From NCBI GenBank assembly GCA_000934665.2, contig JYFJ02003361.1:1-42989 (forward strand): a stretch of 42,989 nt of DNA. Reading direction: 5' to 3'. A program made the position numbers and the translations under genes. A model generated the notes under the pieces. The model did no database searches, was not told the origin of the DNA, and worked only from the letters and a program-made list of their open reading frames with translations. This document shows positions 4,668 to 41,640 of the stretch, one piece after another; within the stretch, counting starts at the first letter, position 1; each line of letters opens with the position of its first letter. This DNA is from Catajapyx aquilonaris (taxonomy: Eukaryota).

Positions 4668-5407
4668 CAGGGCAAAAGTCATGGGCTGGTTTAAACGACG
4701 CAGCATGGCGTAAGTAATGAACGATTATATTTAAAAAAATTACACTACACAGAGAAAGATATGCCATTTATGAATCAAGGTCCAAAAAAGTCACTTCTTG
4801 AAAACAACACCGGATAGATGTCCACCTTTGCGGGCAACACATATTCCTCCAAATGCCGGACGAAACCCTTCATAACAACGCGCTCCGGCATGTCCAGGGA
4901 AATGTTTCTCATGGCGTGTCTTATCTGATCCTTAAGATCAGCCAATGACTGAGGACGTGTGGCGAACACCAAACTCTTCAGGTACCCCCACAAGAAGAAG
5001 TCGGGGTGGTCAAATCAGGCGACCGCGACGGCCAAGGAATGTCCCCAAATCTCGAAATGACCATCCCAGGAAACACTTAACTTTTAATTTGTTTGGTGTT
5101 TGCCACACGTCCTCAGTCAATGGCTGATCTTAAGGATCAGATAAGACACGCCGCGCCGGGAGAAACATTTCCCTGGACATGCTGGAGCGCGTTGTTATGA
5201 AGGGTTTCGTCCGGCGTTTGGAGGAATATGTGTTGCCTGCAAAGGTGGACATCTATCCGGTGTTGTTTTCAAGAAGTGACTTTTTTGGACCTTGATCCAT
5301 AAATGGCATATCTTTCTCTGTGTAGTGTAATTTTAAAAAATATAATCGTTCGTTACTTACGCCATGCTGCATCGTTTAAACCAGCCCATGACTTTTGCCC
5401 CACCCTG
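4668..5407. mobile_element. Foldback derivative of a Tc1/mariner-superfamily (maT/rosa-like) transposon 3' end
   Basis: About 310-bp inverted arms (4668-4975 / 5091-5407); the minus strand encodes WPSRSPDLT-PDFFLWGYLKS; caccctg terminus. Confidence 0.85.
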
Positions 5408-5473
5408 TCAGTGCTGGAAATAAATCACCCTATTGTTGTTTGGCAAATGGTTGAAATACTTAACATTTGATTA

Positions 5474-5881
5474 GGGGCCGTCCAATAATCCGCGCGGACA
5501 AGTGAAGGGGGGGAGGGGGGTTGCACTTTGTCCGCTTTTGTCCGTACAGGGGGGTGGGGGTAGAAGTAAGTTGTACGCGCGGACAATAAACGTCAAATCA
5601 ATATTATAAGGACTCGGCCGTTTTTTTAGTCAGACCTCTCAAATATACTGTAATGCCTCTGAAAAAAGGAATTTGTGTGTAGATATTAAAAAATAAAAAA
5701 TACCAATATATTGAAAATAACACTTTCAGTGTGGCGAAGCGGGGGCAGGGNGGGTCAAGCAGGCCATGTCCGCGCAATTTTTAGGGGGGGAGGTAAGAAA
5801 TTGTCCGCTTCTGTCCGCAAAGGGGAGGGGGGGGAGGTAAAAAAGTGAAAAAATCTGTCCGCGCGGATTATGGACGGCCCC
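5474..5881. mobile_element. PIF/Harbinger-type MITE
   Basis: tta|ggggccgtcca(a)taatccgcgcggaca ... tgtccgcgcggattatggacggcccc|tta. Confidence 0.85.
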
Positions 5882-6152
5882 TTATGCTGTTTATTTTTCA
5901 GGAATGACACTTGTACAAAAAAAATTATCATATGGAGCAACATGTCTTATCTTAATCATTATAAAACATCATTTACGGACGAACGTGCCATTTAAGCTTT
6001 CCTCCAAATCTTTGGTTTAGGATATTACTGTATCACCAAGTCCGGTTGTAGACAGAGACTCACATGCAAGGGTAAAAGCTGAAAATGTTACTCCTGGAGC
6101 AAAACTTAGGCCAATCTTTCATATCAATTTATATCAATTGTACTACAGTATA

Positions 6153-6673
6153 CAGGGTGTAAATGAATTTAGGGGACAAACTTGTAGGGGTGATAGAGGG
6201 GACCAAGACAAACATATTTGACCTAGGAACCCGTGTCCGGAAACGCCATCTAGAGGGGGTTCATAGACAAGGAACGGGTGCGCTCAGACGCGGGAGGCGC
6301 TAATGACCGGACCGTTTAGTTGCTAGGTGGCGCGCGGATTGTACACAACTTTGCAATTCGCCATAACTTGGCAACAACAGAGTTGTTGTTCATTATTTGC
6401 GCGCTACCTAGCATGCTGACTTTAGTTGCTAGGTGGCTCTGTTGTTGCCAGGTTATGGCAAATTGCGAAGTTGTGTACAATCCGCGCACCACCTAGCAAC
6501 TAAACGGTCTTCTCGTTAGCGCCTCCCGCGTGATGCGTCTGAGCGCACCCGTTCCTTGTCTATGAACCCCCTCTAGATGGCGTTTCCGGACACGGGTTCC
6601 TAGGTCAAATATGGTTGTCTTGGTCCCCTCTATTACCCCTACAAGTTTGTCCCCCGCATTCATTTACACCCTG
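6153..6673. mobile_element. Tc1/mariner-type MITE with about 230-bp TIRs
   Basis: ta|cagggtgtaaatgaat ... attcatttacaccctg|ta. Confidence 0.9.
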
Positions 6674-6909
6674 TATTGACAATCAAGACAAGTTCTAAAA
6701 AATGTGATGAACCAAAATGTACGTGACATTGCAACAATGCCTTCCATTACCAGACATTGTCCGGACAAGAATTTTAAACCCAAACCTACAAACCAGTGAG
6801 TTAAACTTTTTTTTTTTAAAGTTCATTATTGCTACATGCACAGAAAGTGCATGAAACACAACACTCATGTAATAGTTATCGCTTATTTTTGTAAAGATAC
6901 ATGACTAGA

Positions 6910-7007
6910 TTACCCTAATTTGGCAAGGTAGTTGGGAGGGCCCCAACATTTGAGGAACTGAACTACTGCATCAACCGAGCTCTCGTTGGCAAGGCTGTAT
7001 GGATTTT
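6910..7007 (-). CDS. CENPC: CENP-C-like terminal coding exon (end of cupin)
   Basis: Acceptor ttttatttcag; encodes (Q)NPYSLANESSVDAVVQFLKCWGPPNYLAKLG*. Confidence 0.85.
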
Positions 7008-10000
7008 CTGAAATAAAAGTAAATTTTTTGTATGATATTCTTTGCAGTCTTCTTTGAAGCTAATGGGATACACATTGCACAGTACTTACGAGGAGGCACA
7101 ACGAAGGTGTCACCAGTGGTGCAGAGGATCACTTTGTCATTCACGGATACCGTCGTTGAGCCACTGAGCACATTACAGATCTGTAATTAAAATCCTTTCT
7201 GAGTAATTGTAGCAGCAGGAGAAATGATGGCAGTGGATACTTCATGACTTTATCCACTGCCACTTCCTTGATGATAATAGATTCTGAGAATGGGAGACAA
7301 CGGGGTAATCCCAAGGTAATCCAAGCAGGTATGGTGAAAACCTGCTTAAAAATCCAATCCATTGATGCCCAGTTCCACCAACTTTGCTATCTGTTGGTTA
7401 ATTCATTCAATAGCTAGCCATATAGTCGTAGTTTAAGTCCTCAGTGAACTAAAATGCATGGTACCAACTTCATTAAATGCCAACTTTCAGTTTGCCCGAG
7501 GCATTACTGGATTGGTTATGTTGTATCTGGACCTTGTTCACAACAGAAATGGGTTTTATATTGGCACCAGTCACATGGTCGGATGGAATCACCAATCTCC
7601 CCAGCCACCACTAGCTAAACTGGAAGATAACCTGAACCACAGGATTTGCCCAGAAAACTCTTAAACGCATCTTGGACCTGGGCAAAAGATGTACTGCAGT
7701 ACAGGGTATGATTTATGGTATGTGGGCTGCAGTACCATGGACTTCATAAACATAATGCATGCATATTTCAGTCCTACCCGGGAAAAATAAGTGCAGACCC
7801 ATCTGCACCAAAGTGCATCAAGAAAATCAAATTTTGACTACTAAAATGGGTTAGTTTTGATGAAAATGTACTTTGTTGGCCTGGCACCACATCAATTAAT
7901 TCAAGTGACAGGTTTCTGAAACTGTGCCTGTTAACTGCATAATCTGAATTAAATGAGATGTTGTAGAAAACAATTAAATTAAAATTGCTCTGTGATTTGC
8001 ATAAAGTTCACCAAATGTGTCTGGCCAAGCCACTGTACATATTTAAAATTAAACAGGCATCTTATTAAATGCTCTGGATTCTTATGTGAGCAGTGGCTAA
8101 ATCAAAGCCATGCGGTGGGCACGATCACAGACAAAGGGTGAAATGCGGCAGTTGACTGCTGCAAATGTGCACCTGGAATGTGTAATAGGCCTTACTGTCA
8201 GACAGAATAATAATGAAAAATGGTGTGGATCTCTGCTTGCCCTTCACACCCATCACGAGATTGTTGGCACCATCATCTTATGTCATGTGCACATTCATAG
8301 GATACAACTTCACCCACTTCCTTATTTGTCCATACTTGCAAACACATGTATAGAGTAATGAGGTTAGGCACATTCTAGCTGGTACCTACTGGGCAATTCC
8401 ACGCGTTACGCACAGACAATCGGAAGCTGTATTGAGGTGTTTAGGAGTCCACCGCGTCTAGGTACTTGCCGTAATAGATTAACTGTTATGAAAATCAGAT
8501 GCAGCGCAGGAATGTGAAGGTGAGGGACATCATGGAAATTTCATTCGATGGCCATCCACGCGTGTGCTATTGTCTGAAATCTCGTTGCGTACAATCCGTC
8601 ATTGGACACCAGTTTCTGGGGTATATGCAACTAGGGGGAAACTCTGCGAAATTTGACAGCACAGGTTTCGAAGCTCAAGTGCATGTGGGGTAGTAGGGTG
8701 CGAGGAACCTCATCATGCCATTAGATTGGGAGAATTCTCATTTTGAACGTGAAAACATTCGAGATATCCACCCGTTACGTACCACCCGGCATCGTTACGT
8801 ACAACCTACAGCGATTTACTGGGAGTAGCATAAATTTTTGGAGATTGGAATGTCTGTGAATTCATAATCTTATAATGGCTCCGCTGCACTGAAATAGGAA
8901 CTAGGTCAGTTTTTGCCCTTTGGATACCTTTTGGTGTGGCTGTGGAAGGTCACACATTCATGAATACAGCAAAGTGATTGCACAGGTCGATGTTGCATTT
9001 TGTGCCCTTGAATTATATGAAAACGTCTGTCTCTCTTCCTTTCACATATCGCTACAGCGAATAACCAGCTGGCAATGAGCATTAGCCGAACGGATATCAC
9101 AGAGGGCACGCTTAGATACTCTGGGAATAATACTGTGTTGTTGGGAATGATACGGTCACAAACTAACATGTCTAAGGAAACCATGGTCCACATGCTATCG
9201 GTTTTAGTCACTCAGATTCCAACTGCGTCAAGATGTAAGAACTGCACCCCGCGTCCGCTCTTTTGTGGAATTGCCCTACTTGTTTCTGACTACTGTTGCA
9301 CATGAACCCAACACGCATTCTCAAGGTCAACCAAAGAATAAAAGGATGTCTATCAGCCACCGGAAAAAAACTTTCAGCGACGGCTAATATGTCCCATATT
9401 AGCCGTCGCTGAATGTTTTTTCCGGTGGCGGCGGGGGCAGCGTTACCTGGCAACCCTGTCTGGCAGGCCAATTCAAACATCAGCCCATGGAGAGCGCTTC
9501 CATTGTTGCCACTGTTTACAAATCGAGTGAGTGACCCCAAAATGACTTATTGCTTCTAACATCATTATTTTCCCCGTTTTCTCCTGCGTATCCCTGCAGA
9601 TACTGTGTAAGCAGGCAGAAGAGACCCGTCGATGGGTCGTCCGCGTCACTCACTCGATTTGTAAACAGTGGCAACAATTGAAGCACTCTCCATGTGCTGG
9701 TGTTTGAATTGGCCCGCCGGACGGGGTTGCAAGGTAACGCAGCGCCGTCGCAGACGGAAAAAAAACATTCAGCGACGGCTAATTTGTCCAGCACTTTACA
9801 AAATTAAGTCTATTGGCTTCAAAATATAAATATGCAAAACTTATTTTCAGACTTTCTAAGTACTTAGATTTCCTGGTCAAGCAAAAGACTGAACAGGCCC
9901 TGAATTGTGCACTTAGGGGAACACATTCGAATATATGTTAATGAGTACTATTGACCGCAAAAGTAATGTCGCGACTGTTTATGTGCTTTTGTGTTTATGT

Positions 10001-13000
10001 GTTGGTAATCCTGGGCGCTGCCAGGTTACGGATATGTTTATTTGGTAATGTTCCGTAATCCACAACACTCTGCTCACCGGTCACGGCCATGGTCCCGCAA
10101 GTGGCCGCACGGTCTGGGTCGCTGTTTGAGAGCGACGCTACTTATTCGTGCAACTTATTTCTAGTTTGGGTAATTATATGTGAGATCATACAACTATGTT
10201 CACCCGACATGTTTTTAGAAAATCGAAATTTGGCACTTAGGATCGTATTTTGTCAAGAACCGCTATAGGTGATGAGAAATGACGAGGTCAAAAATGGGAT
10301 TGTTTCCATTCTGATGTTTACAATAACCTGATAATTTCTCTAATTATGTGTCCCAAATAAGTGCAAAATGGGGCTTAATATTCTACAAGGTAATGCCGAA
10401 CCCGCAAATAACCTCCAAAAAATTCTACGATTAAAATCACGTGTCATTTTGGTAGGTCATATCCCTTCAGTGATGCAAGTTTCATTTTTGCCCTCGTATT
10501 AGGGTCCGAGATATAAAATACAGCAAATAAGGGGGCCGGATGCGCCTCTTTTGCCCATTTGCCCAATATTACGAAGTTGCGTGACCCTTGACGTGACGAC
10601 CCGCGCAGAGTCAAATTTTGCGAAATTTTTGGTGAGTAATCTGCTACTCATAACCTTTCAGAGGCATGTATTTCCATTGTTGTGTTCGTATTAGGTTCCG
10701 AGATATAAAATAAATAAGGTGGCCGGGAGCGTCTGGGTCATTCTATCTCAGAATGTATTTTTGTAACCCCATTATATTATACGTAAATTATATCAAAGGG
10801 GGAGGTGTGGTGGCCGAGATGGTAACGTCTCGGCTTGCTGAGTGAAAGGCCCCAGGTTCGGTCCCCGCCTGGGGAATTTTCCTTTCACCTGCGTCGGGAG
10901 GGTCTCTGACCTGCACCAAGGAGGTGTCTGGCAACCCAGCCTCCTGGGGGACTGGCACATGACCCGTTTAACGACATTGCACCTGCACCCGTGTCCCCTC
11001 CCCGATAAATCCCTATCCCTACCCAATTTCCTTGATTCCTTGCACCAGAGTGAAGTTAAGAGAAAAACTGGAAAATAAAAGTTCATGTGATATACCCCGT
11101 AAGGGGTGAAAGCATTACCCACAATTATTATTATTATTATTTTAAAAGTTATATCAAATTAACGGGCGTGAGATGAGGATCATTTTGGAAGCAACCGTTT
11201 TAACCTAGAGCGTAAAATGGAAATACTAAAAAATTCCCATTGTTGTGCAAAAAGGGCACATTTCTGGTGGTCCAATGAAATTGTTAGCCGCATGCTAAGA
11301 GTATGAAATTAATATGGTGAGTACATGGTCATCTACTCATTACCTCTGGAGAAGGGCAACATCACAAGTCTAGCAGTCTTGGAAATAAGAAATCCTGAAG
11401 TGTCATTTTTTCCATCATTTGGTCATCTTGGTGCTGAATTGAGCGATTTTCTGCTGGTGATGCGCTCAGGGCAACTGAACCTTGTAACCCTGTAATGCCC
11501 CTTGGGTCATATCTGGCACACCATTTAGTGCAATTTGGCACTTACAGGAAATATAAAAATTGCACAAATTGCAAAAATTGCACTAAATGGTGTGCCAGAT
11601 ATGACCCAGTGGGCATTACAGGGATAGGTCAAGCATGACATGACGCTTCTTTTAACACGTGTAAATTTAAAATTTGCCCAGTGTCACATAAGAGTAAAAA
11701 AAACAACAAAAAATGACCAAATACGGGAAAAACGACATTTCATGATTTGGAATTTTTTAGTACTGTACTTCCATTTCACGCTCCAGGTTAAAACGGTTGC
11801 TTCCAAAATTTTCTTCATCTCAAGCCCATTCATTTGATATAACTTACGTATAATATAATGGGTTTACAACAATACATTCTGAGATGGCCGAGCCACCAAC
11901 CTGGCTGCCTTATCATAGAATGACCCAGACGCTCTAGGCCACCTTATTTATTTTATATCTCGGAACCTAATACGAACACAACAATGGAAATTCATACCAC
12001 TGAAAGGTTATGAGTAGCAGATTACTCACCAAAAATTTCGCAAAATTCGACTCTGCGTGGGTCGTCACGTCAAGGGTCACGCAACTTCGTAATATTGGGC
12101 AAATGGGCAAAAGAGGCGCATCTGGCCTCCTTATTTGCTGTATTTTATATCTCGGAGCCTAATACGAGGGCAAAAATGAAACTTGCATCACTGAAGGGAT
12201 ATGACCTACCAAAATGACACGTAATTTTAATCGTAGAATTTTTTGGAGGTTATGTGCAGGTTCGGCGTTTGCAAATAAACATATCCGTAACCTGGCAGCG
12301 CCCAGGATTACCACCACATAAACACAAAAGCACATAAACAGTCGCGACATTACTTTTGCGGTCAATAGTACATAAAGTTATTTTTCCTATTTTAGTAAGG
12401 GAGATCAGGGTCGGTTGTAACACTTTTAGTCTGGATTTTTAAATTCAGTTACATATGCATTTAGGCAAAGGTTTATGACATGGTGGAAATAAGGCAACAT
12501 TTCTCTTTGTAAAATTAACATGTAGTAAAATCTTAATATTAAAAATTGATAGATTTATAAATATTTTTCTAAGGCAAGGCAGAGTGTTACAACTGACCCC
12601 ATCATAGGGACAGTTGTAACAGAGGGTGGGGTCGATTGTAACACTATGTCTTAAGGAGAAAATATAATATGGAAGAACAATTTACACCCAATCATCTTCT
12701 TGGCAATTGTCTTATAGCCTACTTGATCCACCTAGATTACTCTTTATCTCTCGATACTCTGGAATTTATTCAGTAGAATAGTATTGCAAGGGAATGAATT
12801 TTTTATTCATATTTTTCGACAGCAAACTGGTTATCACTAAGAGGCTTTATTGCATAAAATAATAACTATTTCTACTCTCAATATCCTGTGAGATATGTAG
12901 CTGTAACATCTGTACACAGACTTGACCTAAATTCTCCCATGATTTTACTATGTTACAACTGACCCCAAGGAAGCTATTACAACTGGCCCCATTGCATGTG

Positions 13001-16000
13001 GTCTTGTAGTTATGCTTACTACTTTTTAACTGTGCACATGATATTAATGGTCATCCATACTGTCAGTGTGACCCCACTAAAGGAACCTTTCTCATGATAC
13101 CAAGGGCAATTCAATGTCACCTCTAATCTCCACATAATCACTTGATTACTGCCACTCAAAAAAGTAGGGAACATACCTTGATTTTGGTTTTTTGCCTATA
13201 CGTAGAATAACAAAAAGCCAAAAAGGAGAAGCCTAAGTTTTGCCTGGCTTAGAGGCCGTAGTGACACACGTCCAAACGTATTTATTATTGGCGATGTTAC
13301 AACTGTACCCTGTTACAACCGACCCCGATCTCCCGTATACACTGTGCTCCCAATTATCTGGATACGAATTATTTATATGTGCATCGTCAAAAAAAGGTTA
13401 GAAATTTAAAAATCTGAAAGGTCAAAAATTCTCAGAAATAAATATGACAGACTTTTTCCAGAAGACAAATTAAAAATCTATGGTAAGGTTTATAGATTAA
13501 ACCTGCTTATTTAAAGCAGCATAAAAGTATGTACACCCTTGAGCATAAAGATGGAGACGGTAGGCTCTCACCTTCGGCAGGCTGCTCTGCCAATGTCAGC
13601 TATTACGGTATCAAAATTAATACACTGTCATAAATACACGAACACATGCCTGAAGCAGCTAGCTCGGTCCAAAAAGAGTTCATTAATTTGAGTCGGATAA
13701 AGAAAGGTCAAAAAAATGCCTGCCGTCTCCATCTTTATGCTTGCGGGGGTACATAGTTCATTTAAAACCTGTGAATACCTCATTTGTATGGTATCTAGGA
13801 CCATTTTTGGAATATCTTATTATTATCATCCAGGCACACCTGTGCTTTCATTAGCACGGATAATTGGGAGTGCAGTGTAGTCCAATATAGCTGATGTAGT
13901 CCGTTATGGAAAATATTTGTGGAACATACTAATTCCATTAAATGCAAAGATTTAACTGTAGACACAATTTATCCTAAAAATTATTCACTGCCTGGAAAAA
14001 CAAGAACTGAAATATGTCCTTGTTTGACACCACACTTTCTTTCCCACTGAATCTCGCATGCCTTACAGCAACATACCAGGGTTTCCTCCTCGAGGTAGGA
14101 TGTGTCCTTTTTATGCTTGGCAGGGATCCTCAAATGGATGATTTCCAGTTTCTTAATACCATCCATTCCAAACACCTGCCTGGCACTTAATGTTCCTCCT
14201 TTCCTGTCACCATCCACGTGCTCCTCAGGATAAGGCTGGAAGCTTGGCTCAGCCAGATGCTGAACATGGTCTGCATCATGGAAAATTAAATGAGACCAAA
14301 TAAAACACCTCACATTTGGAATCATAGATAAAGCATATTGTACTTACTAAAAGAGACCTCACGCTTTGTGGCCGTATCGTAGACCCTCACGGTGGAATTC
14401 CAACGAGGATCACCTAATCGGATGGAATAAAAATATGCAACTTGCTATGAGACAATCAATTCAGTGCACCCATCTCCCTGGAATGCTTCTTCCTAACAGG
14501 TCAGTTTGTCTCAGCATATAATATAGTATTGATGTAACATAATTTCCAAGTGCATTACTCTTGGGTAACTAGCGCACCCGTAGCCAAAATTTGGCAAAAC
14601 CTGCAATGAGGAAGACAATAATGGGAATGACAAAATAGAATGAGAGGGCTCGCGGAGTGACAACTAAGAAAATATCGTATAGATGGTCGTAAGATGCGGT
14701 TGAAAAATTTAGTGGCATTGGTTGAATCAATGGACATACTGTACAGTACACTTCCTGAATCGGATATGAGAAAAATTTTAATAAAACCTTGCGATATAGT
14801 CATATACAACATTCTGTGTAAACACACTGTTGTTGGAGAGCAATGTTCCATGTTGAGCAGTAGGAGTAGTGAACACTTTGATCTGACTAATTCCGGAGAT
14901 ATAATATACCTTGCAGTGTTCCGGACACAAAAAAATTAGACGAATATTATAGGGGGAATTGGCGGTTATACTGGGATTTGCTGTCAGTTTGAGAGGAGGG
15001 GGAGGAGGAGGAGGAGGTGGCCATCAACAGAAGGCGGAAGGACACACCAGCAGCGATATACCTTGGAGCGTCACAGACAGCAAAAAAAAATTAGACTAAT
15101 ATTATAGGGGGAATTTTTGGTCCAATTATTTTGTACCACTAACTAAAGGAATCAACACCCATACACACAGGCCGTCGACGGTTTTGGTCTTTGGTCGCGT
15201 TGACGCTGCGGACCAAGCATGACTCATGTAAACAAGCGCAACACTAAAGACCGAAACCGTCGACGGCCTGTGTGTATGGGCCTTTAGTATGAAAGATCTG
15301 TCGTTGCAAAGTTAATGCTGAAATTATTGTTTTATTTAAATATCAGCCAAGGTTCAAACTGCAGCCTAATTCATATAACAAACCTGCTTCAGAAGTGGTT
15401 TAAAATTCATCTCATTACAGATGATATAAATGACAACATTACTGAACAACTGGCCTCATCTCTATAGGCAGGCCATGCTAGCTTCCAATTGACGTCATCG
15501 TTTTGTTTACCAATTCCGGAAATATGCCGAACATACCCCTGGAACCTCCCACTTTTCAAGTTGCCACGAGATGCCCCCATGCAACAGTGGCCCACCCTTT
15601 CTTCCATTAACTTCCAATCATGCTTCCAATTGACGTAAAAATTGAGTAAAAATGGCCAAAAAAATGCCTTAAGGTGGGGATAAAGAAAATCCGGACTTCT
15701 TTGAGTTCCAACTCTGGTCGAAAGAGGAGACAGTGGATTCCACCCTCCCTACACAAAAGAAGGGTCGCGTTTGCGGTTGACCATTCCCTCTAGGCACAAT
15801 AAAAACCGTGAAAATTAGGGTCCCCCCAACTTCTAGTAGTTCTCAAATCAGTCAAATTTTGACAAAATTATTTGCCGAAAGGTTATAGCTAAATATAAAC
15901 ATCGGCTTCATGGGTCCGGAGCACCTCATTTTTCCGCATTATTGTATGCTTATTACGACATCACTTAAAAGTTTACGACGGCGTAAATTACTCCCGAATG

Positions 16001-19000
16001 CAAATGTCTTTTTAAAATACTACATTAAGAATATGGGAAAAGTACAGCACACATGTGTAAGAGAGAGGTCAGTTACACTTACACACACAAAAAAAAATCG
16101 GTTCTGATGTTGTTAGTTAGCCTTAGCGAGAACTTTACTCCCAAATTCTCTTTATCTCCCCCCCCCCCNCACTTAAATTGTTGCATGAGAGCATCTCTAT
16201 AGAACCTTGAAAGATGGAAGGTCCCAGCCAGGAACAAATCAATGCAAGTTTGGCAACATGAGACTGACAACCAAACTACTACATTTTACTCACCTGAATT
16301 TTGAAAAATTTTCCATTTTGTAATAATTCTGCTTTGCCTATTGTGTTATGCCGACATCACCTCAGCTGCTAATTAGCTAATTAGTAGGGTCAAAATATAA
16401 GCAAACTATAACAATAATGGCATACAGAAAAGGTGATACTTCAAAGCCACAACACCTCCAGCTGCTCACTGGTCGCTGTCAGGTTCAAGTGAATCACCTC
16501 ACCTATTCCATCAACTTGGTCAGAGTCGGGGGAGGTGTGGTGGCCGTGATGGTAACGTCACGGCTTGCTGAGTGAAAGGCCCCAGGTTCAATCCCCGCCT
16601 GGGGAACTTTCCTTTCACCTGCGTCAGGAGGGTCTCTGACCTGCACCAAGGAGGTGTCTGGCAACCTAACCTCCTGGGGGACAGCACATGACCCATTTGT
16701 ATACATTGCACTTGCACCTATGTTCCCTCCCCAAAAAATCCCTACCCGTACCCGACATCCTTGACTCCTTGCACCGGTGAATGAAGAAAAAAGTGTAAAT
16801 ACACAGAGAAAACTGATGGTGGTGTGCCACCCCCCAAAGAGGCCTTTGATGCCTAGCACGGGGTATTTAAAAAAATAAAATAAAATAAAATAAACTTGGT
16901 CAGAGTCATTTTAAAATTCTGGTGAGTAAAATGTAATAGTTTGGTTGTAAGAACACTCAATCACTTAATGAATGTAATCAAAGCAGATTTCCTGAAATTT
17001 TTCATATCACCAACAGTACAACATGCAAGAACCAGACAGACCAAATAAAAAGGCATGATGAATGAGGAGATCTGAAAATCTTTGCACTCATGTTATGATG
17101 TACTCACAATTATCTTGTTTCGAATTTTTTTTCCTCTGCCCAGTTCTTCCCCTTTTGCCTCTTCCAGCAGGAGTCTTCTCCATGCGTACCTTGCTCTTCA
17201 CACCAGAGGAGCTGGTGGATTCATGCTCCATGCCCTGATTGCTTGCAGTTGGGCGACCTCTTCCACTCTTAACAGTTGACCGGGTTTTAGTAGCCACAAT
17301 TTTCTTGCCACTTCCTGGCTTGCGACCCCGCTTCGATGGTGCAGGGATCATCGCAGATTCTGCTTCCTGCTCATTCACTGACTCACCAGCCAGTGAGGCA
17401 AGTTTCCTTCCACGTCTCTTTGGAGGAGGGGCAGTGACAGGCTCACCTTCTTTAACTATCGGTTTGTTTTGCTGAATGGATAACTTCCTCCCCCACTTCT
17501 TAGCAGAGGTGTTTTCTGCAGCATTTGTTACCAAATGTGAGTCTGGCTGCCTTGTTTTAGAGCCAGGTTTCCTTCCCGGCTTCTTCAGAGGCAGATCACT
17601 GACATTTATTTGCACCTTGTTGTTTGCTACACTGCACTTATTCAGGGTGCTGCTCTTTGGTGTAGGCTTCCTTCTTAATCGCAGTAGCAGACGCTTTTCA
17701 GGTTTCATAGTTGGCAGTTGTGGCTCGACCAGCTCTGTTAACTCGGTCTCCCATTCACAGGCTGAGAGGCCACTGGGTGTAGTTGGCTTTGGTTGGGTGT
17801 GTGGCACCTATTTATAAACAATTATTTATAATAGCATGTCCATTAAGAATGTGCCAAGCACCCTGCCACGTATTAAGTTGTGCCCAATATATTCTGTTCC
17901 ATGTCAATTACAAGAATAAAGTCATACGCTGGATTGTACCAACAGAGTGAAACTCGATCTATCTTTCGTGGATATATAGTTTTCCCAGACCCATCGTTCA
18001 ATTTCTAGGGTGCTGGAATAAATGCTATTTAAACAATGTAATATTGTTCCTCAATTTATTGTTTTCCCGCATATATTGTTCAGAATTATTAGTCCTGAAG
18101 AACCTGAATCTCGTATTTATCATTTTTAAGAAATAACAAATCCGTACACAAAACTATAAATGTTAGAATGCATTGGTAGTAATAACAGCAGTAAATGTGA
18201 ATATAAACAACTTTCTGAAAATGAAGTATTAGTATAGTCAGTAAGTTCCCGTCCTGGCCGCAGGAGGCCGGCAGGTGACACGGAGACAGGTGCTGCTGTG
18301 GTTGGCTGTGAGGTACATTAGCAGTAACCAACCTCGCCAAGAGTAAACTCGGTGTGCTGCGTAATAGCTGCGGTACACAGTCGAAAAATGTCGTTCACCA
18401 TATCAGGCGCGTCTGAGGCGGACGAACGGGCAGTAATTCAGTTCCTGTGTGCAGAGGGAGCGGGACCAAAAGAGATTCATACACGCATGAGGGCTGTGTA
18501 TGGAGACACTTGCGTGGCGTACTCGACAGTGAAGGACTGGGTATGCCATTTCCGCAGCGGTCGACAAGGCACGTCGGACATGGCACGGTCAGGCCGACCT
18601 GTTACAGCCTCCACTGATGCACGCCTAGTGTGCGTCGAGGGGTTGGTTCAAAGTGATCGGCGCTTGCATGCCTGCTCAGCAATCCTGTCGATGGACAAGC
18701 GCCTTGTCGACCACTGCGGAAATGGCGTACCCAGTCCTTCACTGTCGAGTACGCCACGCAAGTGTCTCCATACACAGCCCTCATGCATGTATGAATCTCC
18801 TTCAGTCCCACTCCCTCTGCACACAGGAACTGAATTACTGCCCGTTCGTCCATCTTGGACGCGCCTGATATGGTGAACGACATTTTTCGACTTGTGTACC
18901 GCAGCTATTACGCAGCACACCGAGTTCACTCTTGGCCAGGTTGGTGACTGCTAATGTACACCTGCGAGCATAAAGATGGAGACGGCAGGCTGCTCGGCCA

Positions 19001-22000
19001 ATCTCAGCAATTACGGAATCAAATATACTGTCATAAATACACGAACACACGCTTGAAGCAGCTAACTCAGTCCAAAAATAGTTCATTAATTTGAGTCGGA
19101 TAAAGAAAGGTCAAAAAAGGGCCTGCCGTCTCTATCTTTATGCTCGCAGGGGTACCTCACAGCCAACCACAGCAGGACCTGTATCCCGTATACACTGTGC
19201 TCCCAATTATCTGGATACGAATTATTTATATGTGCATCGTCAAAAAAAGGTTAGAAATTTAAACATCTGAAAGGTCAAAAATTCTCAGAAATAAATATGA
19301 CAGCCTTTTTCCACAAGACAAATTAAAAATCTATGGTAAGGTTTATAGATTAAACCTGCTTATTTAAAGCAGCATAAAAGTATGTACACCCTTGAGCATA
19401 AAGATGGAGACGGTAGGCTCTCACCTTCGGCAGGCTGCTCTGCCAATGTCAGCTATTACGGTATCAAAATTAATACACTGTCATAAATACACGAACACAT
19501 GCCTGAAGCAGCTAACTCGGTCCAAAAAGAGTTCATTAATTTGAGTCGGATAAAGAAAGGTCAAAAAAGGGCCTGCCGTCTCTATCTTTATGCTCGCGGG
19601 GGTACCTCACAGCCAACCACAGCAGGACCTGTCTCCATGTCACCTGCCGGCCTCCCGCGGCCAGGACGGGAACTTGTTGACTATACCTAATAATACAGAC
19701 TAGGCAAGACAGTGGAAAAACAACATTGGTAGACACTGATGTCGAAAATATATTCAAGCAAATGTGACTTTGAATTTTATATAAGCCCGGCACTTATCAC
19801 TTTCCCAAATTCATCGGTTTTTCCCAGGGGTGCCCAATAAAACTACGAGTCAGGTTGGCACTGTGTCTGGAAGTTTTGAAGGCTCTTGTTTTGCTGTTGC
19901 TGATCATTACCAAACAATTTAGCATAAAATACAAGCAGCAAAAACTTGACAACACATTGACACAATCCAGCAGTAAAGTCTATCTGTTACGAAATCATGC
20001 TTGGGCACACAATATTAATGCTAATTTAAACTTTACAAGTTAGATCTAACAATCCGATGTTCAATAAGGTAACATAAATAAAACTAAAAATGTCAAACCA
20101 CAACTTCTTGCTTGTGGTCACTTAACACATGTGTACAGCATAATCTAAGATAGGGCATGGCGGCATGCAGAGCCAGAGAATAAAAGCACATAAGCAGGGG
20201 TATCACTGGACATATTGGCAGGGTAAATGATAGAAGTGCAAAGGCCCTTGACAATGTATAACCACATATTTAGACTTTTCTCTGCTGAGTATATGCAGTA
20301 CTGTATGTATAGCCCCTCTGTAACACCACTCCATGTATGGCCAGCCCCCAACTTGCATAAGTGGATCATTCCACAACAATGACAACATGATATGCAAGTC
20401 AAAATTTTGTAACTTGGAACATGTTTTTGTATTGCACAGTACTGTACCTTATACATTGATACTGGAGTCACTGTCTTGTTCAATAGAGGCCATTGCGAGT
20501 GGGAAAGAATTCCCTGAGAAGCTCAAAGACAAATTGCAAATGTTTGTCAGGTTCACAGAGTCAGAGAAGGAGTCTGAGCAGGCATGTCTGATTTGCCACA
20601 TGCCACCTTTATGTTACTGACTTCTTCCATAAATTGTGCATGTCAGAAGTGTTTATCATAATCTGAATCTACAGAAGTTGGCACTATGTATACTCCGATT
20701 CACGTAAGTCTGAACCTTTTTGGATATCATACCCCCGAAAGTAGTGCCCCCCATGTCAGGCCATACCGCCCCTCACATCAAAATGTGCAGTTTGTGTAGC
20801 GCTGCACCTACCGCATGGGCTGCCCATGATAACTAGGCATTAGAATTACACGTACCAGCACTGTTTCTTCGAGAAAGGCAGCGATACCGGAGACTAATTT
20901 TGTGTCGGCTCACCCCCTCAGGCGTATGTATATCCACAAAGGTTTGGACTTATGTGAATCGGAGAGTAAGTTGGGGACTTGCTGTAATGGCTTTTAGTAA
21001 TTTGACTCAGAGCACCTGTCTGAGTCTGCCATCCTATGAAAAATGGCATATCTGCCCTGTGTCATAAGGCTGAGAGGCAACATCAGCACAATATGTTATT
21101 GTAGCGTACTATCAGTCCAACAAGAATTGTCGCAGCGGCAGCGCACGAACTACAATCTACGAGCACAGGTATACGAGAGACTGTAGTTCGTGCGCTGCCG
21201 CTTGCGACAATTCTTGTTGGACACCAGGTACACTGCAGTTTTAAACTTATTTTCTTATGATGGCAAATATGAATGACATGGCACCATCCTTATGGGAAAC
21301 GGCTTTTGGCTAAATTCTCAAAATTTTTTGTATGTTGTAGAAAATAAGATGGTAGACTAATCAATTCTTAACGTTATGCTAAGACCTGAAACTCATCACA
21401 TCACCTGCTACATTGGATCTAAGGGCAGCCTACAGTTCCCTCATAAGGTCTAACAAATGTGGTACTGTTGTAGCCGGGTTCGGTGGAGGGAAACTCGGAG
21501 ACTGTCTAAACCATGGGTTTATTCGTTTTTCTGAACCAGCTAACCAATCCCTCTTCATTGGTCCCACATTTGATGGACCTTATGAGGGGACGGTAGGCTG
21601 CCCTTTGACCCGATGTAGCGGGTGACCTAATGCCTTTCAGGTCTTGGCGCAATGTTAAGAATTGATTACCATCTTAGGGCCGAATTCAGAGAGGTTGCTT
21701 AACGTAAACGAGCCCGATTAAATCCTTTAGTCATCCTCGATTAGCAAATTTAAAAGTGCTAGCAAGTGCGATTAGGGGGCATTTAGCGCTAATCGCCGTC
21801 TTTGTATTAGCAGGTTGATTAAATTTGCTAATCGAGGCTGACTAAAGGATTTAATCGGGCGCGTTTACGTTAAGCAACCTCTCTGAATTCGGCCCTTATT
21901 TTCTAAAACATATATTATTTTTTTTAAGAATTGAGCCGAAAGCAATTTCCCATATAAGGATGGTGCCATGTCCTTACACTAACATGTGAGCAAGAAATTC

Positions 22001-22987
22001 AGCCACACATAAATTGAGTGCAGTAACAACAGTTTAAACTAGAATGTTTTGCTGCATGACGTTACCTTCTTTACACCCTGCTCTGCAAGCACCAATGTCT
22101 TCTTGCTGGTTCGTTTCTGCGCAGGTTTTTTAGGGACACTGTCTGGAAGGCTACTTTTCATTGGTGAGGCAGGGTTGGTGCTGTCGATGAGACCTTCTTT
22201 GGCATTCCCATTCAAAGTGCAAATGGGGATTTGGGCAGCAGGAGTGGTGGTGGGTGGTAATATTTTCATATCATCATCAGAAGGCTTAAAACCAACTGCA
22301 AAGAGTCAACAAGAAAACTGTTGAGTCAATGTAGCATAAAGGCCATTTCACAAAAAAAATGTCGCGCGGCAAACGGCGCGACTTGCGGCAAATTTTATTG
22401 TTGCCAACAATTGGCAACAATAAATATAAATAAAAATTTGCCGCAAGTCGCGCCGTTTGCCGCGCGACATTTTTTTTGTGAAATGGCCTTAATGCTGGCC
22501 CATGAGCAATTTTAAAACTGGAAGAATTACGTCCTATTAGAGAGTTACTTTTAATGTAAGCAGTTGAACAATTTCGACAAATAGTTAGGTAATGAATTCT
22601 GCATCCTTCTGGCATCTCATAAGGTGGTAGTCAGCTGAAATTTTCCAATTAATGATCTATTTCATACCACGAGAAAACATTTGCAATTACCCTGACAATT
22701 GGAATTTTTGGGGGGTTCTGCCAGCATTAAATAATAATAATTAATGGAAAGTCAGTGCAGTTACTTTCCGCAAACGAATGGGTATCACAAACGGTGGTCA
22801 TCATCATCTGATTCATTCATGAGTGAGAGTAAAAGTTAAAACAATTATTATGAATTTTAAAAGATGTCAGTTTAAAATGAATGCATTCATTAAATGAAAA
22901 CTGAAAGTGACGGGTTTAAATTTACTCACAAAGTCGTCGTGGACCTATAGTTGACTTTTCGTCCCTTTGGCAGAACATTCTAAATGC
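6910..22987 (-). CDS. CENPC: CENP-C/Mif2-like centromere protein, multi-exon: join(22930-22987, 22066-22295, [optional 20448-20513], 17108-17807, 14348-14413, 14077-14270, 7090-7180, 6910-7007); about 480-500 aa; 5' end unresolved
   Basis: All listed exons have AG/GT boundaries and matching phases (1437 nt without, 1503 nt with the optional exon; open to TAA at 6910-6912). The C-terminus DPRWNSTVRVYDTATKREVSF...LEIIHLRIPAKHKKDTSYLEEETLICNVLSGSTTVSVNDKVILCTTGDTFVVPPQNPYSLANESSVDAVVQF aligns by eye with the CENP-C cupin domain (human ...STGDSFYVPSGNYYNIKN...). The upstream part is basic and low-complexity, as in CENP-C. Confidence 0.8.
7090..7180 (-). CDS. CENPC: CENP-C-like cupin exon
   Basis: ttaattacag / gtaagt boundaries; ICNVLSGSTTVSVNDKVILCTTGDTFVVPP, containing the cupin GDxFxVP motif. 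Confidence 0.85.
9395..9786. mobile_element. MITE with about 140-bp TIRs, abutting the end of a second copy
   Basis: Arms 9395-9535 / 9645-9786; an additional terminus cagcgacggctaatatg at 9375-9391. Confidence 0.75.
9948..12368. mobile_element. 2.4-kb foldback/long-TIR DNA element with TA flanks
   Basis: ta|ctattgaccgcaaaagtaatgtcgcgac ... gtcgcgacattacttttgcggtcaatag|ta; arms pair over several hundred bp; inner palindrome at about 11488-11625. Confidence 0.85.
10798..11145 (+). mobile_element. tRNA-derived SINE, family A, inserted in the left foldback arm
   Basis: A box tggccgagatgg, B box ggttcggtccc, (att)n tail; 13-bp TSD aa(a/g)ttatatcaaa; the empty site is preserved in the right arm. 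Confidence 0.9.
12398..13335. mobile_element. TA-flanked MITE (pogo-like)
   Basis: gggagatcagggtcggttgtaaca ... tgttacaaccgaccccgatctccc; internal gttacaactgacccc repeats. Confidence 0.8.
13340..13877. mobile_element. Tigger/pogo-like MITE containing a nested MITE X (13534-13749)
   Basis: ta|cactgtgctcccaattatc ... gataattgggagtgcagtg|ta; nested TIRs gcataaagatggagacgg / ccgtctccatctttatgc. Confidence 0.8.
14077..14270 (-). CDS. CENPC: CENP-C-like exon (start of cupin)
   Basis: atgcag / gtatgt boundaries; phase 1 to 0; HVQHLAEPSFQPY...KKDTSYLEEETL. Confidence 0.8.
14348..14413 (-). CDS. CENPC: CENP-C-like exon (pre-cupin)
   Basis: cgattag / gtaagt boundaries; DPRWNSTVRVYDTATKREVSF resembles human DPLQPTRVKDPETREII. 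Confidence 0.8.
15158..15280. mobile_element. Short palindromic MITE (Harbinger-like)
   Basis: cccatacacacaggccgtcgacggttt...aaaccgtcgacggcctgtgtgtatggg. Confidence 0.8.
15673..16172. mobile_element. TTAA-flanked MITE (Kolobok-like)
   Basis: ttaa|ggtggggataaaga ... tctttatctcccc(n)cac|ttaa. Confidence 0.6.
16267..16948. mobile_element. MITE with about 40-bp TIRs, host of a SINE
   Basis: acaaccaaactactacattttactcacc / ggtgagtaaaatgtaatagtttggttgt. Confidence 0.7.
16528..16892 (+). mobile_element. tRNA-derived SINE, family A, second copy
   Basis: Same head as the 10798 copy; (aaaat)n tail; perfect 15-bp TSD aacttggtcagagtc. Confidence 0.92.
17108..17807 (-). CDS. CENPC: CENP-C-like large basic exon with AT-hook-like motifs
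   Basis: 700-nt open exon, aaatag / gtgagt boundaries; contains KKPGRKPGS, KKWGRKL, KRRGRKL, KRGRKPGS, GRGRP and GRGKRGR. Confidence 0.8.
18229..19690. mobile_element. Mariner 5'-end foldback with truncated transposase HTH, interrupted by MITE X copies (18959-19152, 19387-19602)
   Basis: ta|ttag(g)tatagtca TIR at both ends; ATG at 18388 gives MSFTISGASEADERAVIQFLCAEG...KEIHTRMRAVYGD...TVKDW..HFRSGR...RSGRP; the same N-terminus is present inverted at 18701-18883. Confidence 0.9.
20448..20513 (-). CDS. Candidate symmetric (phase 0/0) optional exon of the CENP-C-like gene
   Basis: cttctcag / AAG|gtacag boundaries; GILSHSQWPLLNKTVTPVSMYK; no homology support. Confidence 0.35.
20693..20964. mobile_element. 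MITE with about 33-bp TIRs
   Basis: ctccgattcacgtaagtctgaaccttt / aaaggtttggacttatgtgaatcggag. Confidence 0.7.
21115..21222. mobile_element. Short hairpin MITE
   Basis: gtccaacaagaattgtcgcagcggcagcgcacgaactaca and its reverse complement. Confidence 0.8.
21275..21972. mobile_element. Long-TIR MITE with a nested Harbinger-type MITE (21677-21895, TTA TSD)
   Basis: gacatggcaccatcctta / taaggatggtgccatgtc; nested tta|gggccgaattcagagagg ... cctctctgaattcggccc|tta. Confidence 0.8.
22066..22295 (-). CDS. CENPC: CENP-C-like exon
   Basis: ctctttgcag / AAG|gtaacg boundaries; GFKPSDDDMKILPP...EQGVKK; phase 1 to 0. Confidence 0.75.
22340..22489. mobile_element. Near-perfect palindromic Harbinger-type MITE
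   Basis: taa|aggccatttcacaaaa ... ttttgtgaaatggcct|taa, about 60-bp arms. Confidence 0.88.
22930..22987 (-). CDS. CENPC: CENP-C-like 5'-most confidently placed exon (contains a possible start Met)
   Basis: Strong tttttgtttcag acceptor and gtgagt donor; AFRMFCQRDEKSTIGPRRL; phase fits the next exon. Confidence 0.65.
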
Positions 22988-24867
22988 CTGAAACAAAAAT
23001 TAAATCAGTTGTTTTTGCAGGGTGAAAAAAACCATGTGACAACAGATGGTGAGAATTTGCAGCCATGTAGACTATGGATTGTAAGATTATAAGAGTAACA
23101 ATTGCTGCTGTAGTTTGGTTACCATGGTGGTCGCTATGGTTACCACACTTTGACGTGTTTGTGATGTCATTGTCTGATGGAACAACTGTTGTAGTAGCAT
23201 GGTAACCATGGTATTACTATGGTTACTGAGGATATGACGTGTTTGTCTGACGCGTGACAGACCCTCGTTTTCTGACTTAACGATGCATTTGACGCACCAA
23301 GTGTATTGCCAAAAAATGTTTCTTTTGAGTCACACTATCATTCTGCGTAAAACACGCACTTATGTCATTTACACAGTGTATATGTCTGCAAAGCTAGAAC
23401 GTGGAAAAATCGGGGACAGCTCTGGATTGGACAGTGAAAGTTTTCCCTAATGGGATGTAGCTTTTCTTTTATCCCTGCATGCCCTGTACTGTACTGCATG
23501 CCACTCCACCTTTCTGTTGCACTATATTAACCTCTCGGTATTTCCACTGCTATTGGATGATGCCCCTTGATTTGGCTGAAAATTTCCTTTCAAGTTGATG
23601 ACCACCAAGGCCTTCCACCACTTTCCACTGGACAACTGAAGCTGCTGAACTGACTAATTCCCAGACTCCTCAATATGGGTGTAATCTGCTAATGGGGTCC
23701 CAACATTGATGGTATCTTCAACCAATCTTTGGTGTACCCACCCAACCAGTTGCACATACTCTATCTCAGGTCCTATGCTGATAACACTAGTCAACAAGGT
23801 TTTTGGCACATGAACAATTTTAGTTAGGGGGGAAGCTGAATTTGTAGTTTTTAACATAAAAAGAACATGATGCATTTCTGAGATTGCTCACCAAACGGAC
23901 ATATGGGAGGGGGAGAGAATAAAGGAAATATTGTGAGAGTCCAATATCAGGCGAAAGATCAGTATGGTACTTATAACGGGACGAAACTTGCATGTGCGCT
24001 CTATCGAGCTCCAGGGATGTAATTATTTGATTTTTGACTAAAGCTTGTGTGTTTGTGAAATCTCCATTCATCCCATCATCCATTCAACCATTCTTTCCAA
24101 GAAAAGCCCGCTTTCCAAAACAATTCCCTAACTGATCTCGACCACTGGAGCTCGACAGTCTGCGAATTGAGCAGCCACATCAGTGCCCTCTTACTCCATC
24201 TATCTTCCGGTAAAGCTATAGTTTTTATCAAAAAAGTTAGAGATGTTTAAATATGTTCACTGATAATTTCAATCTCCCAGTCTCCAGCCGGGCAAAATAC
24301 CCTGCTGTGTTCCTAGGGAGAGTCAAAAACTTTTTGATAAAATAAGTGTATCCTCTCAACCTCGTCCAATCGGTCCAGCGCCCAAAAACAAGCACCATAG
24401 AGTGAGACGGGAATAATTTTGGCATCACAAAGTTTGAAAGGCTATTCTTATATCTCTTATTTTAAAATTAATCAATGTAGGCCAAAAAGCATTTATCAAT
24501 GTAAATGCCTTTGTTAAAAAATGCTACGTCGTCCGGGCTGTTTGCTTGGAGGCTGCAAATGGAACTCCCAAATATTTATATTCTGGAACAGATTCGATCC
24601 TAGTGGTTTTCCAAAAAAATCTATCCTTATCTGAGGGTTTTCCCCCTTTCCGAAAAATGACTACCTGTCTTTTAAGTACATTTAATCTAAGTTCATTCTC
24701 GTCAAAATATATTTCCAGAGCTTTTAGGCTTTTTCTCAGGTCCAGCGGGTTATTAGCCAGGATCACTAGATCGTCAGCAAATTGTAAAAAAATTATTTCC
24801 GCATCGTTGTTGCTAAATCTTACCCCTGTTCTCATTTTTTACAAAAATTGTAGGTAAATCTGCTAGA

Positions 24868-24872
<5 letters not shown>

Positions 24873-24930
<58 letters not shown>

Positions 24931-25257
24931 CTGGGGTAGTGCTTGACCTCATCTGAGGTATACTGCACAGACCTTTATTTATTACATCAAGTACATTTGA
25001 GCCTTTTTACGTAGCGCCCGGGCCCATGGGCCGGATGACAGGAGGGGATGTGCAAGGTGCAGTGCAATGTCTTAATGTGGCCATTTTTAGTGAACTCCCC
25101 CGGGTGATTTAGTGTGTGGAAATACCACCCGAGACGAAGCCAGAGGTGATCCTGAACTCTGCATGAGATGAAGGGGGTGTCCCCGGGTTGGGATCGAACC
25201 CAGGACCTTAACATGCATGGGCACATACTTTACCGCAGCACCACTCCGCCTCCCCTC
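24873..25257 (-). mobile_element. tRNA-derived SINE, family C, with a long (TTA)n tail
   Basis: B box ggttcgatccc; about 20 tail repeats; 18-bp TSD taaatctgctagaaataa. Confidence 0.92.
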
Positions 25258-25758
25258 TAAATCTGCTAGAAATAAGTTAAACAGTAATAGACGACTCAGC
25301 GGCTCCCCCTGCAACACACCATGAGTAATCGGAATACTTTGCTGACCGTCTTGTGAGACAATCTTGGCTGTGGAATATATGGCTTGAAGAGTGCTCATAA
25401 ACCTAACTTTGACTAACTCCCAGAGTCAATAGCTTCGCTAAAAGCTTGCTGTGCTCTACCGAGTCGAACGCCTTCGCAAGATCCACAAGCAGTGCGTAGA
25501 GTTTTCCTATTTTTATTGATGTATAGGCCTATTTCTGTATGAACGTTGTGAGAACGTATATGTGGTCCATACAGCCTCTGGTCCTTCTAAATCCCGCCTG
25601 GTTTTCCGGTAATATATTGTTGTCCTCCGCCCAAGACCGTAGTCTAGTTCCTAATAGCCCCGAAAAATGTTTCATTATATTGTTGACCAGTGAGATCGGA
25701 CAGTAATTTTCTGGGCACGTATCTGGCTCTGTTGTGTAAATTGCTATCACTGATATAG

Positions 25759-25854
25759 ACATTAGTTTTAATTCAGTTCATATGTTGGGTTAGCTTGCGT
25801 CTCCCTGCATCGCTGACTACCCTTTATAGGGAAATGTCTTGATGATGATGATGA
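25759..25854 (+). mobile_element. Severely 5'-truncated retroelement 3' end with (GAT)n tail
   Basis: 8-bp TSD tgatatag; removing it restores the LINE reading WMAISVIAIY. Confidence 0.7.
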
Positions 25855-40622: not shown

Positions 40623-41640
40623 ACCTGCAAACAGTTGTAATCTTTAATCCAAATTCAATAACTCAATCGATTGATGTGTATTGGGTGGCTGATAACAAGG
40701 TCTCAGGTTGATGAACTAACAGGTGTATTGCAAGTATATCATAAGAGCTCAAGAACAGACCAGACTACTAGGTCTGTTCCTACATAACATCAACAACAAG
40801 TCACCTGTTGACTAGCAACTGGTTACAATAATGACAGGACACAACAGATTGAACAAATCATGCACTGTGAGAGGAACGCTAATATTGGTTGAGGTAGAGG
40901 ATCAGGCTTGCACCTCCCTGGGAGGAAGTAACTTTGAGTCTCGGTGCAACAAGTTACCATGACTATGACAACACCAATTTTGTTAAATGCCTAATTGGCT
41001 TCAGGGACTTATTTCTAGGCATGAAACACTGAAATTAAAATTCAGGCCACACTTTTAAAACATTTCCTTTAAATATACTGTAGAGTTGACTCCTGATATA
41101 ACAACCGTGGCTGTAACAAACTCTCCGTTATAATTTACTCAAAAGGCTGATCCCACCATACCTCCATATATGGCACACCTTGGTTATACAGTAGGATACT
41201 GATTTTCGCTGTCCATTGAAGTCTCTTATCTTATACCCAGAGTCGAAAGTGCTAACAATGCTTCTCTAATGGCTATACATTTTGCTACTCTCAAGGTTGT
41301 CACAACTGAATCGTGGAAATCAAAACTGCACTACGTTACATTTTCAGGATAAGTGAAACTCACCCTTATTGAATGAAGCCTATAATAACGAAACATGTGT
41401 ATATTGGTATTCATGGAAAGATTTGGCGAAACTGTTGACATACCAGGTGTTATGAACCCCCTTGACTTGAACGATGACTGAATGGCAAGCGACAGTTTGA
41501 CCCTCCTGCAGAGGCCGAAAAAAAACTGCGGTTTTGATTCCCACACGATCATGGAACGTAAAACCATGCTATGTTAAGCGAAAATCAAATATGATGCATG
41601 CAACTCGCAATTATAATTCGCAGAATAAAGTGCGGGAAAA

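Follow-up and report, generated by a model that had tools for sequence, protein, structure and literature searches.

What remains of CENP-C once the motif that grips CenH3 can no longer be recognised, and can such a protein still be identified as CENP-C? CENP-C usually links CenH3 chromatin to the outer kinetochore, and the question is raised here by a locus of Catajapyx aquilonaris in contig JYFJ02003361.1, from which a window of 42989 bases (the whole stretch of DNA that was analysed), with about 42% G+C, was examined. On the minus strand of this window, from 22978 to 6910, six exons splice to a single open frame of 453 codons, with phases compatible at all junctions, whose product ends in what reads as a small cupin and carries no recognisable CENPC motif upstream of it. 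The reading that we favour, with roughly even confidence, is that an intact gene, present in single copy, encodes a short (about 453 residues) working CENP-C-like inner-kinetochore protein, whose CENPC motif would have been lost or have diverged beyond recognition. A CENP-C that survives without its CenH3-binding motif shows what the rest of the protein does alone and marks candidate lineages for CenH3 loss, and dragonflies are the sole such case that we found in print. A second independent case, if true, would help to order motif decay, CenH3 loss and holocentricity; the chief value of the locus now is as a gene model that flags the C. aquilonaris genome for a CenH3 search.

Exon structure and copy number

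The original prediction placed a spliceable open reading frame (ORF) at 6910-22987, and these coordinates proved accurate. The frame runs through six coding exons, separated by five GT-AG introns, to a TAA stop.

Coding exon 1, 22978-22930, minus strand: ATG at 22978-22976, 16 codons plus 1 base, donor GTGAGT
Coding exon 2, 22295-22066, minus strand: 230 bases, acceptor ttgcag, donor GTAACG
Coding exon 3, 17807-17108, minus strand: 700 bases (233 codons plus 1 base), AT-hook-like region, donor GTGAGT
Coding exon 4, 14270-14077, minus strand: 194 bases, linker and first putative cupin strands, donor GTATGT
Coding exon 5, 7180-7090, minus strand: 91 bases, putative cupin core including G-D-x-F-V-V-P-P, donor GTAAGT
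Coding exon 6 (last), 7007-6910, minus strand: 98 bases, completing the second cupin motif and the last strand, stop TAA at 6912-6910

In the same order, the introns measure 634, 4258, 2837, 6896 and 82 bases; all five conform to the GT-AG rule, with the donors listed above, and every acceptor is an AG that follows a T-rich tract. The phase-1 acceptor of exon 4 matches the phase-1 donor of exon 3, and exon 3 itself lies inside a stop-to-stop frame of 239 codons, the longest open frame of the region. A strong acceptor, tttttgtttcag, stands 9 bases 5' of the ATG, and at least one more 5' exon, probably untranslated, is thus expected further upstream. At the other end, the region past the stop holds one possible polyadenylation signal.

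Possible poly(A) signal, 5890-5895, minus strand: the sole AATAAA or ATTAAA within 1.5 kb past the stop, about 1 kb into a repeat-rich 3' region

Copy number was gauged by the depth of DNA contigs from a public run mapped on the window. The coding exons lie in single-copy DNA, at a depth of about 35, and the introns consist mostly of high-copy repeats. The pieces of unique DNA, as defined by contig depth, are the following.

Unique DNA: 6627-8441
Unique DNA: 13727-14593
Unique DNA: 17311-18292
Unique DNA: 21871-22362
Unique DNA: 22467-23206

The window contains two ambiguous bases, a single N at 5751 and a single N at 16169, the latter in intron 3, where it interrupts a run of about 14 G. We considered whether the N at 16169 could mark a hidden assembly gap; given the poly-G setting, it looks more like one ambiguous base.

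The protein and its cupin

The spliced product has 453 residues, an isoelectric point (pI) of 10.0 and a mass of about 49.5 kDa, and it is rich in Lys, Pro, Ser and Thr. Exons 1 and 2 encode a basic-aromatic N-terminal segment (Lys8, Arg13, Arg14, Phe16) followed by a stretch rich in Pro, Ser, Thr and Lys. In human CENP-C, Lys10, Tyr13, Arg14-16 and Phe17 contact the Mis12 complex (MIS12C) (PMC5101189), and residues 8-16 of the present protein, compared by eye, are positioned like these contact residues.

Exon 3 encodes 233 disordered and very basic residues (pI 10.9). Four RGR cores lie within them, a number that none of 20000 residue shuffles reached (shuffle mean 0.13), and the AT-hook-like cores comprise one G-R-G-R-P, two G-R-K-P and two R-G-R-[KT]. 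The exon matches no Pfam family, the AT-hook family PF02178 included, even at E up to 10. AT-hook-like motifs had been noted in the original prediction and stand in this form; the further suggestion that they betray a rewired protein does not. Drosophila Cenp-C has two AT hooks alongside a Cenp-C motif with an essential residue, R1101, and a Cal1-binding cupin (10.1101/134817; PMC12724597; Heeger et al. 2005 as summarised there), and AT hooks are therefore no argument for CenH3-independent rewiring.

The C-terminal 93 residues, encoded by exons 4-6, have the look of a small cupin, which leaves about 360 residues upstream of it where more than 300 had been estimated. Metal-free cupins are recognised by the lack of H-x-H...E in motif 1 and by a Tyr that replaces His in motif 2 (P-x-G-x-x-Y-x-x-x-N). 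Direct reading of the two motifs in the spliced model gives both features: motif 1 lacks H-x-H and has no His at all, and motif 2 reads G-D-T-F-V-V-P-P-Q-N-P-Y-S-L-A-N, with Tyr at the position of the metal-binding cupin His.

Profile, structure and homology searches took single exons or unspliced ORFs, one at a time. On exon 5 alone (30 residues), Pfam Cupin_2 scores 18.7 bits (E 0.0014) and CENP-C_C (PF11699; profile length 85, cut-off 29 bits) scores 16.8 bits (E 0.0082, profile positions 39-64), with further matches to Cupin_3 (16.2 bits) and AraC_binding (14.9 bits). Across scans of this single exon, CENP-C_C ranges from 16.8 to 17.5 bits (positions 39-68) and Cupin_2 from 17.9 to 18.7. 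When 13 long ORFs and then 226 minus-strand ORFs of at least 28 residues (120 + 106; 6.5-27 kb) were scanned against Pfam, cupins appeared only in the exon 5 frame; the other matches were to transposon relics (mariner helix-turn-helix (HTH), reverse transcriptase) and to scattered, weak, unrelated families with E above 0.01, below their cut-offs. Among PDB sequences, exon 5 matches only the bacterial cupin 2pfw (E 0.72 and 1.9) and the mannose-6-phosphate isomerase 1qwr (E 0.99). Obtained on single exons, these statistics support a cupin and do not tell the subfamilies apart. The Mif2/CENP-C cupin of the original prediction is thus upheld as a cupin, in exon 5, and only in part as one of CENP-C type.

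Kinship with CENP-C is suggested by a comparison by eye. The spliced cupin aligns with the stick-insect CenpC cupin (eLife 2014 supplementary file 3) over an ungapped block of 50 residues, 11 of them identical and about 12 more conservatively paired. The P-x-x-x-x-Y-x-x-x-N signature is kept, with the Tyr in the same place in the stick-insect and Ladona fulva CenpC cupins, and a K-C-x-G tail behind the last strand is common to the present cupin and that of L. fulva, again by eye. Judged from the architecture and from this by-eye comparison with two insect CenpC cupins, the protein is very probably related to CENP-C.

Searches for wider relatives returned nothing. A word search against longer proteins gave 2956 candidates for exon 3 and 12 for exon 4, none of which scored; phmmer with exon 3 against 1.84 billion representatives gave no match at E up to 0.001; exons 3 and 4 found no relatives among metagenome contigs, and exon 4 no usable match in the ESM Atlas.

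Searches for a CENPC motif

The CENPC motif was taken as R-x-S-x-R-x4-P-x2-[YF]-W, some 100 residues upstream of the cupin. Strict and relaxed patterns, applied to all six frames of the window, gave no usable match. Two loose matches were set aside, one broken by stop codons and the other without the aromatic pair and with stops nearby in frame. Since a motif may also be split by an intron, junctions were searched by joining the 14 codons before each GT (1016) to the 14 after each AG (1095) on the minus strand from 13.9 to 32 kb, in three phases. This produced 150 pattern matches, 12 of which passed a splice-quality filter, none of them credible: nine share one donor within a relic of a long interspersed nuclear element (LINE) reverse transcriptase, and the other three use an acceptor before a poly-Tyr run.

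A stick-insect CenpC motif (eLife 2014 supplement) was furthermore aligned locally to all 2285 ORFs of at least 12 residues in the window. The best scores, 36, 35 and 33, all fall at unrelated places, and the spliced model scores 19 (rank 239 of 2285), which is nothing above chance. One minus-strand frame, 2712-2831, reads R-R ... P-x-L-E-W-W-R and scores 32, joint fourth of the 2285. Its setting is repeated DNA, 4 kb past the stop, and its spacing is shortened; it was judged a chance match. The six-frame, junction and alignment searches thus agree in finding no CENPC motif upstream of the cupin, as the original prediction had claimed.

The same prediction, from a by-eye scan, saw no intronic exon that could supply the motif. 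All in-phase, stop-free AG..GT segments of introns 2 and 3 were enumerated (231 and 161, of which 13 and 19 passed the splice filter), and two look-alikes emerged.

Optional micro-exon candidate, 14413-14348, minus strand: 66 bases, donor GTAAGT, 78 bases upstream of exon 4
Optional exon candidate, 18004-17912, minus strand: 93 bases, donor GTAATT, reading P-R-K-x-x-R ... W-Y

Joined to exon 3, the first of these reads R-K ... W ... Y-D at the spacing of the CENPC motif, but the two anchor arginines are missing, as is the aromatic pair. Considered as decayed CENPC motifs, the two score at chance level against the stick-insect motif (17, rank 426 of 2285, and 13, rank 1238, respectively), and the frame of the micro-exon has no match among PDB sequences. 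Both lie in unique DNA adjoining real exons, and they may be relics or optional exons.

These results bear on the rival that survives best, namely that the gene is a canonical CENP-C orthologue that still binds CenH3, its motif being too diverged for our patterns and for a single insect motif, or lying in an exon omitted from the model. There is precedent for such an oversight, as Drosophila Cenp-C was first thought absent owing to its strong divergence (bioRxiv 10.1101/134817), and no CenpC motif was found in the monocentric Tribolium and cricket either (Drinnenberg et al. 2014, PMC4359364), so that a missing motif argues only weakly that CenH3 was lost. The two optional exons, with their partial motif skeletons in unique DNA next to exons, could be read in the same sense; they stand at chance level, however, the first lacks the very residues that anchor the motif, and no canonical motif occurs in any frame of the window or across the GT..AG junctions searched. 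We therefore regard a canonical, CenH3-binding orthologue as unlikely.

Rival readings, surroundings and known systems

How might a CENP-C of the kind that we favour work? What the sequence itself shows is the exon structure, the motifs present and the lack of a CENPC motif, and from these we infer every function that follows. The N-terminal basic-aromatic segment would dock the Mis12 complex; the basic middle, with its four or five AT-hook-like RGR/GRP cores, would tether the protein to the minor groove of DNA; and the C-terminal metal-free cupin would dimerise the protein and may, like the fly cupin with Cal1, bind a loading factor. On this view, the protein would be targeted to the kinetochore by DNA contacts together with other constitutive centromere-associated network (CCAN) proteins, in place of the grip on CenH3 by arginine anchor and aromatic pair.

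Several points weigh against this reading. First of all, the exon structure was inferred from splice logic alone, and 453 residues is short for CENP-C. Second, the N-terminal likeness to CENP-C amounts to four residues matched by eye. Third, on exon 5 the generic Cupin_2 profile scores slightly above CENP-C_C, which itself stays below its cut-off; exons 4 and 6, scanned singly, show no cupin match in Pfam and no match among PDB sequences, and the PDB sequence search with exon 5 returned no CENP-C cupin. Membership in the CENP-C family is not statistically established, and the identity is probable rather than proven; since the trait by which the family is best conserved and defined is missing by construction, we file the gene as CENP-C-like, alongside the motif-less proteins known from Odonata. 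Finally, no homologue turned up for any exon searched.

Another way to account for the missing motif is that the gene is a diverged paralogue, for example a germline-specific or subfunctionalised one, and that a canonical CENP-C with a CENPC motif is encoded elsewhere in the genome. The short protein would suit this, as would the Drosophila Cenp-C duplicates with alternative motif retention (bioRxiv 10.1101/134817) and the two different Libellula vibrans transcripts, NODE_6260 and NODE_13580, that are listed as CenpC (supplementary file 3, PMC4359364). No look-alike of 5400-17399 was found among the other indexed DNA windows, although this comparison of DNA words against a partial index is a weak test, and a paralogue seems to us more doubtful still than a canonical orthologue.

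More radically, the product might have no kinship with CENP-C and be a chromatin protein that combines AT hooks with an unrelated small cupin. The sole exon with profile matches indeed scores as well with Cupin_2 as with CENP-C_C, and its only matches among PDB sequences are a bacterial cupin and an isomerase. The details of the motifs, read by eye, point the other way, namely the Tyr for His in motif 2, the lack of H-x-H in motif 1 and the ungapped alignment to insect CenpC cupins. We know of no other family in animals with both a disordered AT-hook region and a metal-free cupin at its C-terminus, which also counts against an unrelated cupin, and we consider this explanation distinctly improbable. 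Least credible of all, in spite of the lack of relatives, is a relic without expression or a string of open frames that arose by chance, given 453 codons intact over five phase-compatible GT-AG introns (five phase matches by chance, about 1/243), an open frame of 239 codons in DNA of 42% G+C, and an RGR content that is strongly non-random.

If a working CENP-C-like protein without a recognisable CENPC motif is accepted, its relation to CenH3 is the next matter. According to Drinnenberg et al. 2014 (eLife 3:e03676, PMC4359364), holocentric insects deficient in CenH3 have no CenpC, with dragonflies as the exception; these CenH3-less, holocentric animals have a protein with a clear CenpC cupin and a decayed CenpC motif; CenH3 loss was suggested there to have permitted the decay. 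The scenario of motif decay without CenH3 is thus already published, and the idea is not new. In Lepidoptera, according to later papers, CENP-A and CENP-C were both lost, with reliance on CENP-T and CCAN. A limited literature search gave nothing relevant on CENP-C without the motif, whether beyond insects or among basal hexapods, in the parts of the sources available, from which we do not claim that none is in print. This animal is not among the libellulid dragonflies described there, and a bolder proposal would be that the locus records an independent uncoupling of CENP-C from CenH3, with a 453-residue, AT-hook-anchored, dimeric receptor of the Mis12 complex in an unrecognised CenH3-independent, possibly holocentric lineage that kept CENP-C; from the sequence of the locus, we hold this to be quite unlikely.

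The surroundings of the gene can be described briefly. An upstream neighbour on the same, minus, strand (38312-38929 and 40239-40643) bounds its 5' side. One exon of this neighbour encodes a Myb/SANT-like domain (PF00249, 25.1 bits, E 1.9e-5), and a 206-codon open frame, with a stop near 38312, appears to be its last exon, for which no homologue was found among proteins of near length. Intron 2 contains, at 18328-18950, a palindromic mariner-type relic in which two ORFs on opposite strands match Mos1 HTH_48 (34.2 and 30.9 bits), with inverted repeats at 18379-18570 / 18701-18892 (94%) and 18313-18379 / 18893-18959. One repeat element (300 bases, 99% identical, with a 165-base unit in three copies) occurs both at 13331-13783 in intron 4 and at 19022-19636 in intron 2, and inverted repeats resembling miniature inverted-repeat transposable elements (MITEs) lie, among others, at 10392-10746 / 11915-12269 (96%). 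On the minus strand at 24527-25777, LINE reverse transcriptase fragments (RVT_1, 31.6, 20.8 and 18.6 bits) are spread over three frames beside a poly-Leu/poly-Tyr simple repeat, and 24892-25555 shows very high depth in both runs mapped.

Among known systems, bacterial Cupin_2 barrels such as PDB 2pfw provide the best sequence match to exon 5, over two central strands and the G-D-x-F-x-V-P-P turn, a match that is not significant. They are single-domain proteins, on the other hand, and show no eukaryotic exon structure, no AT-hook region and no replacement of His by Tyr, all of which are present here. With canonical CENP-C/Mif2/Cnp3 of vertebrates and fungi, the present protein shares the order of parts, namely an N-terminus that by eye resembles the one which binds the Mis12 complex, then a basic, disordered middle, and a metal-free cupin at the C-terminus. 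It differs from them in having no CENPC motif, no second central CenH3-binding region and only about 453 residues, and in a cupin match that is confined to a single exon and falls below the cut-off.

The fly Cenp-C is about three times as long as the 453-residue product. Both proteins combine AT hooks, or AT-hook-like cores in the present one, with a C-terminal cupin, and both are extremely divergent from other CENP-C; the fly protein, however, keeps a Cenp-C motif with R1101, whereas a recognisable motif was not found here. In dragonflies, loss of CenH3 has been shown, and their chromosomes are holocentric. Against the odonate CenpC cupins we count, by eye, about 15 identities in 54 positions, which speaks for another gene or lineage; the sequence differs from the CenpC of L. 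fulva, and an 8-residue word of exon 5 does not occur in the available part of the eLife supplement of Drinnenberg et al. 2014, so that the locus is not that gene. The odonate CenpC-like proteins (L. fulva Locus_17537; L. vibrans NODE_6260 and NODE_13580) nevertheless resemble the present one in having no recognisable CenpC motif upstream of a C-terminal cupin of CenpC type, as judged by eye here, and NODE_6260, in its displayed part, carries K-R-G-R-P AT-hook cores, which recall those of exon 3 of the gene described here.

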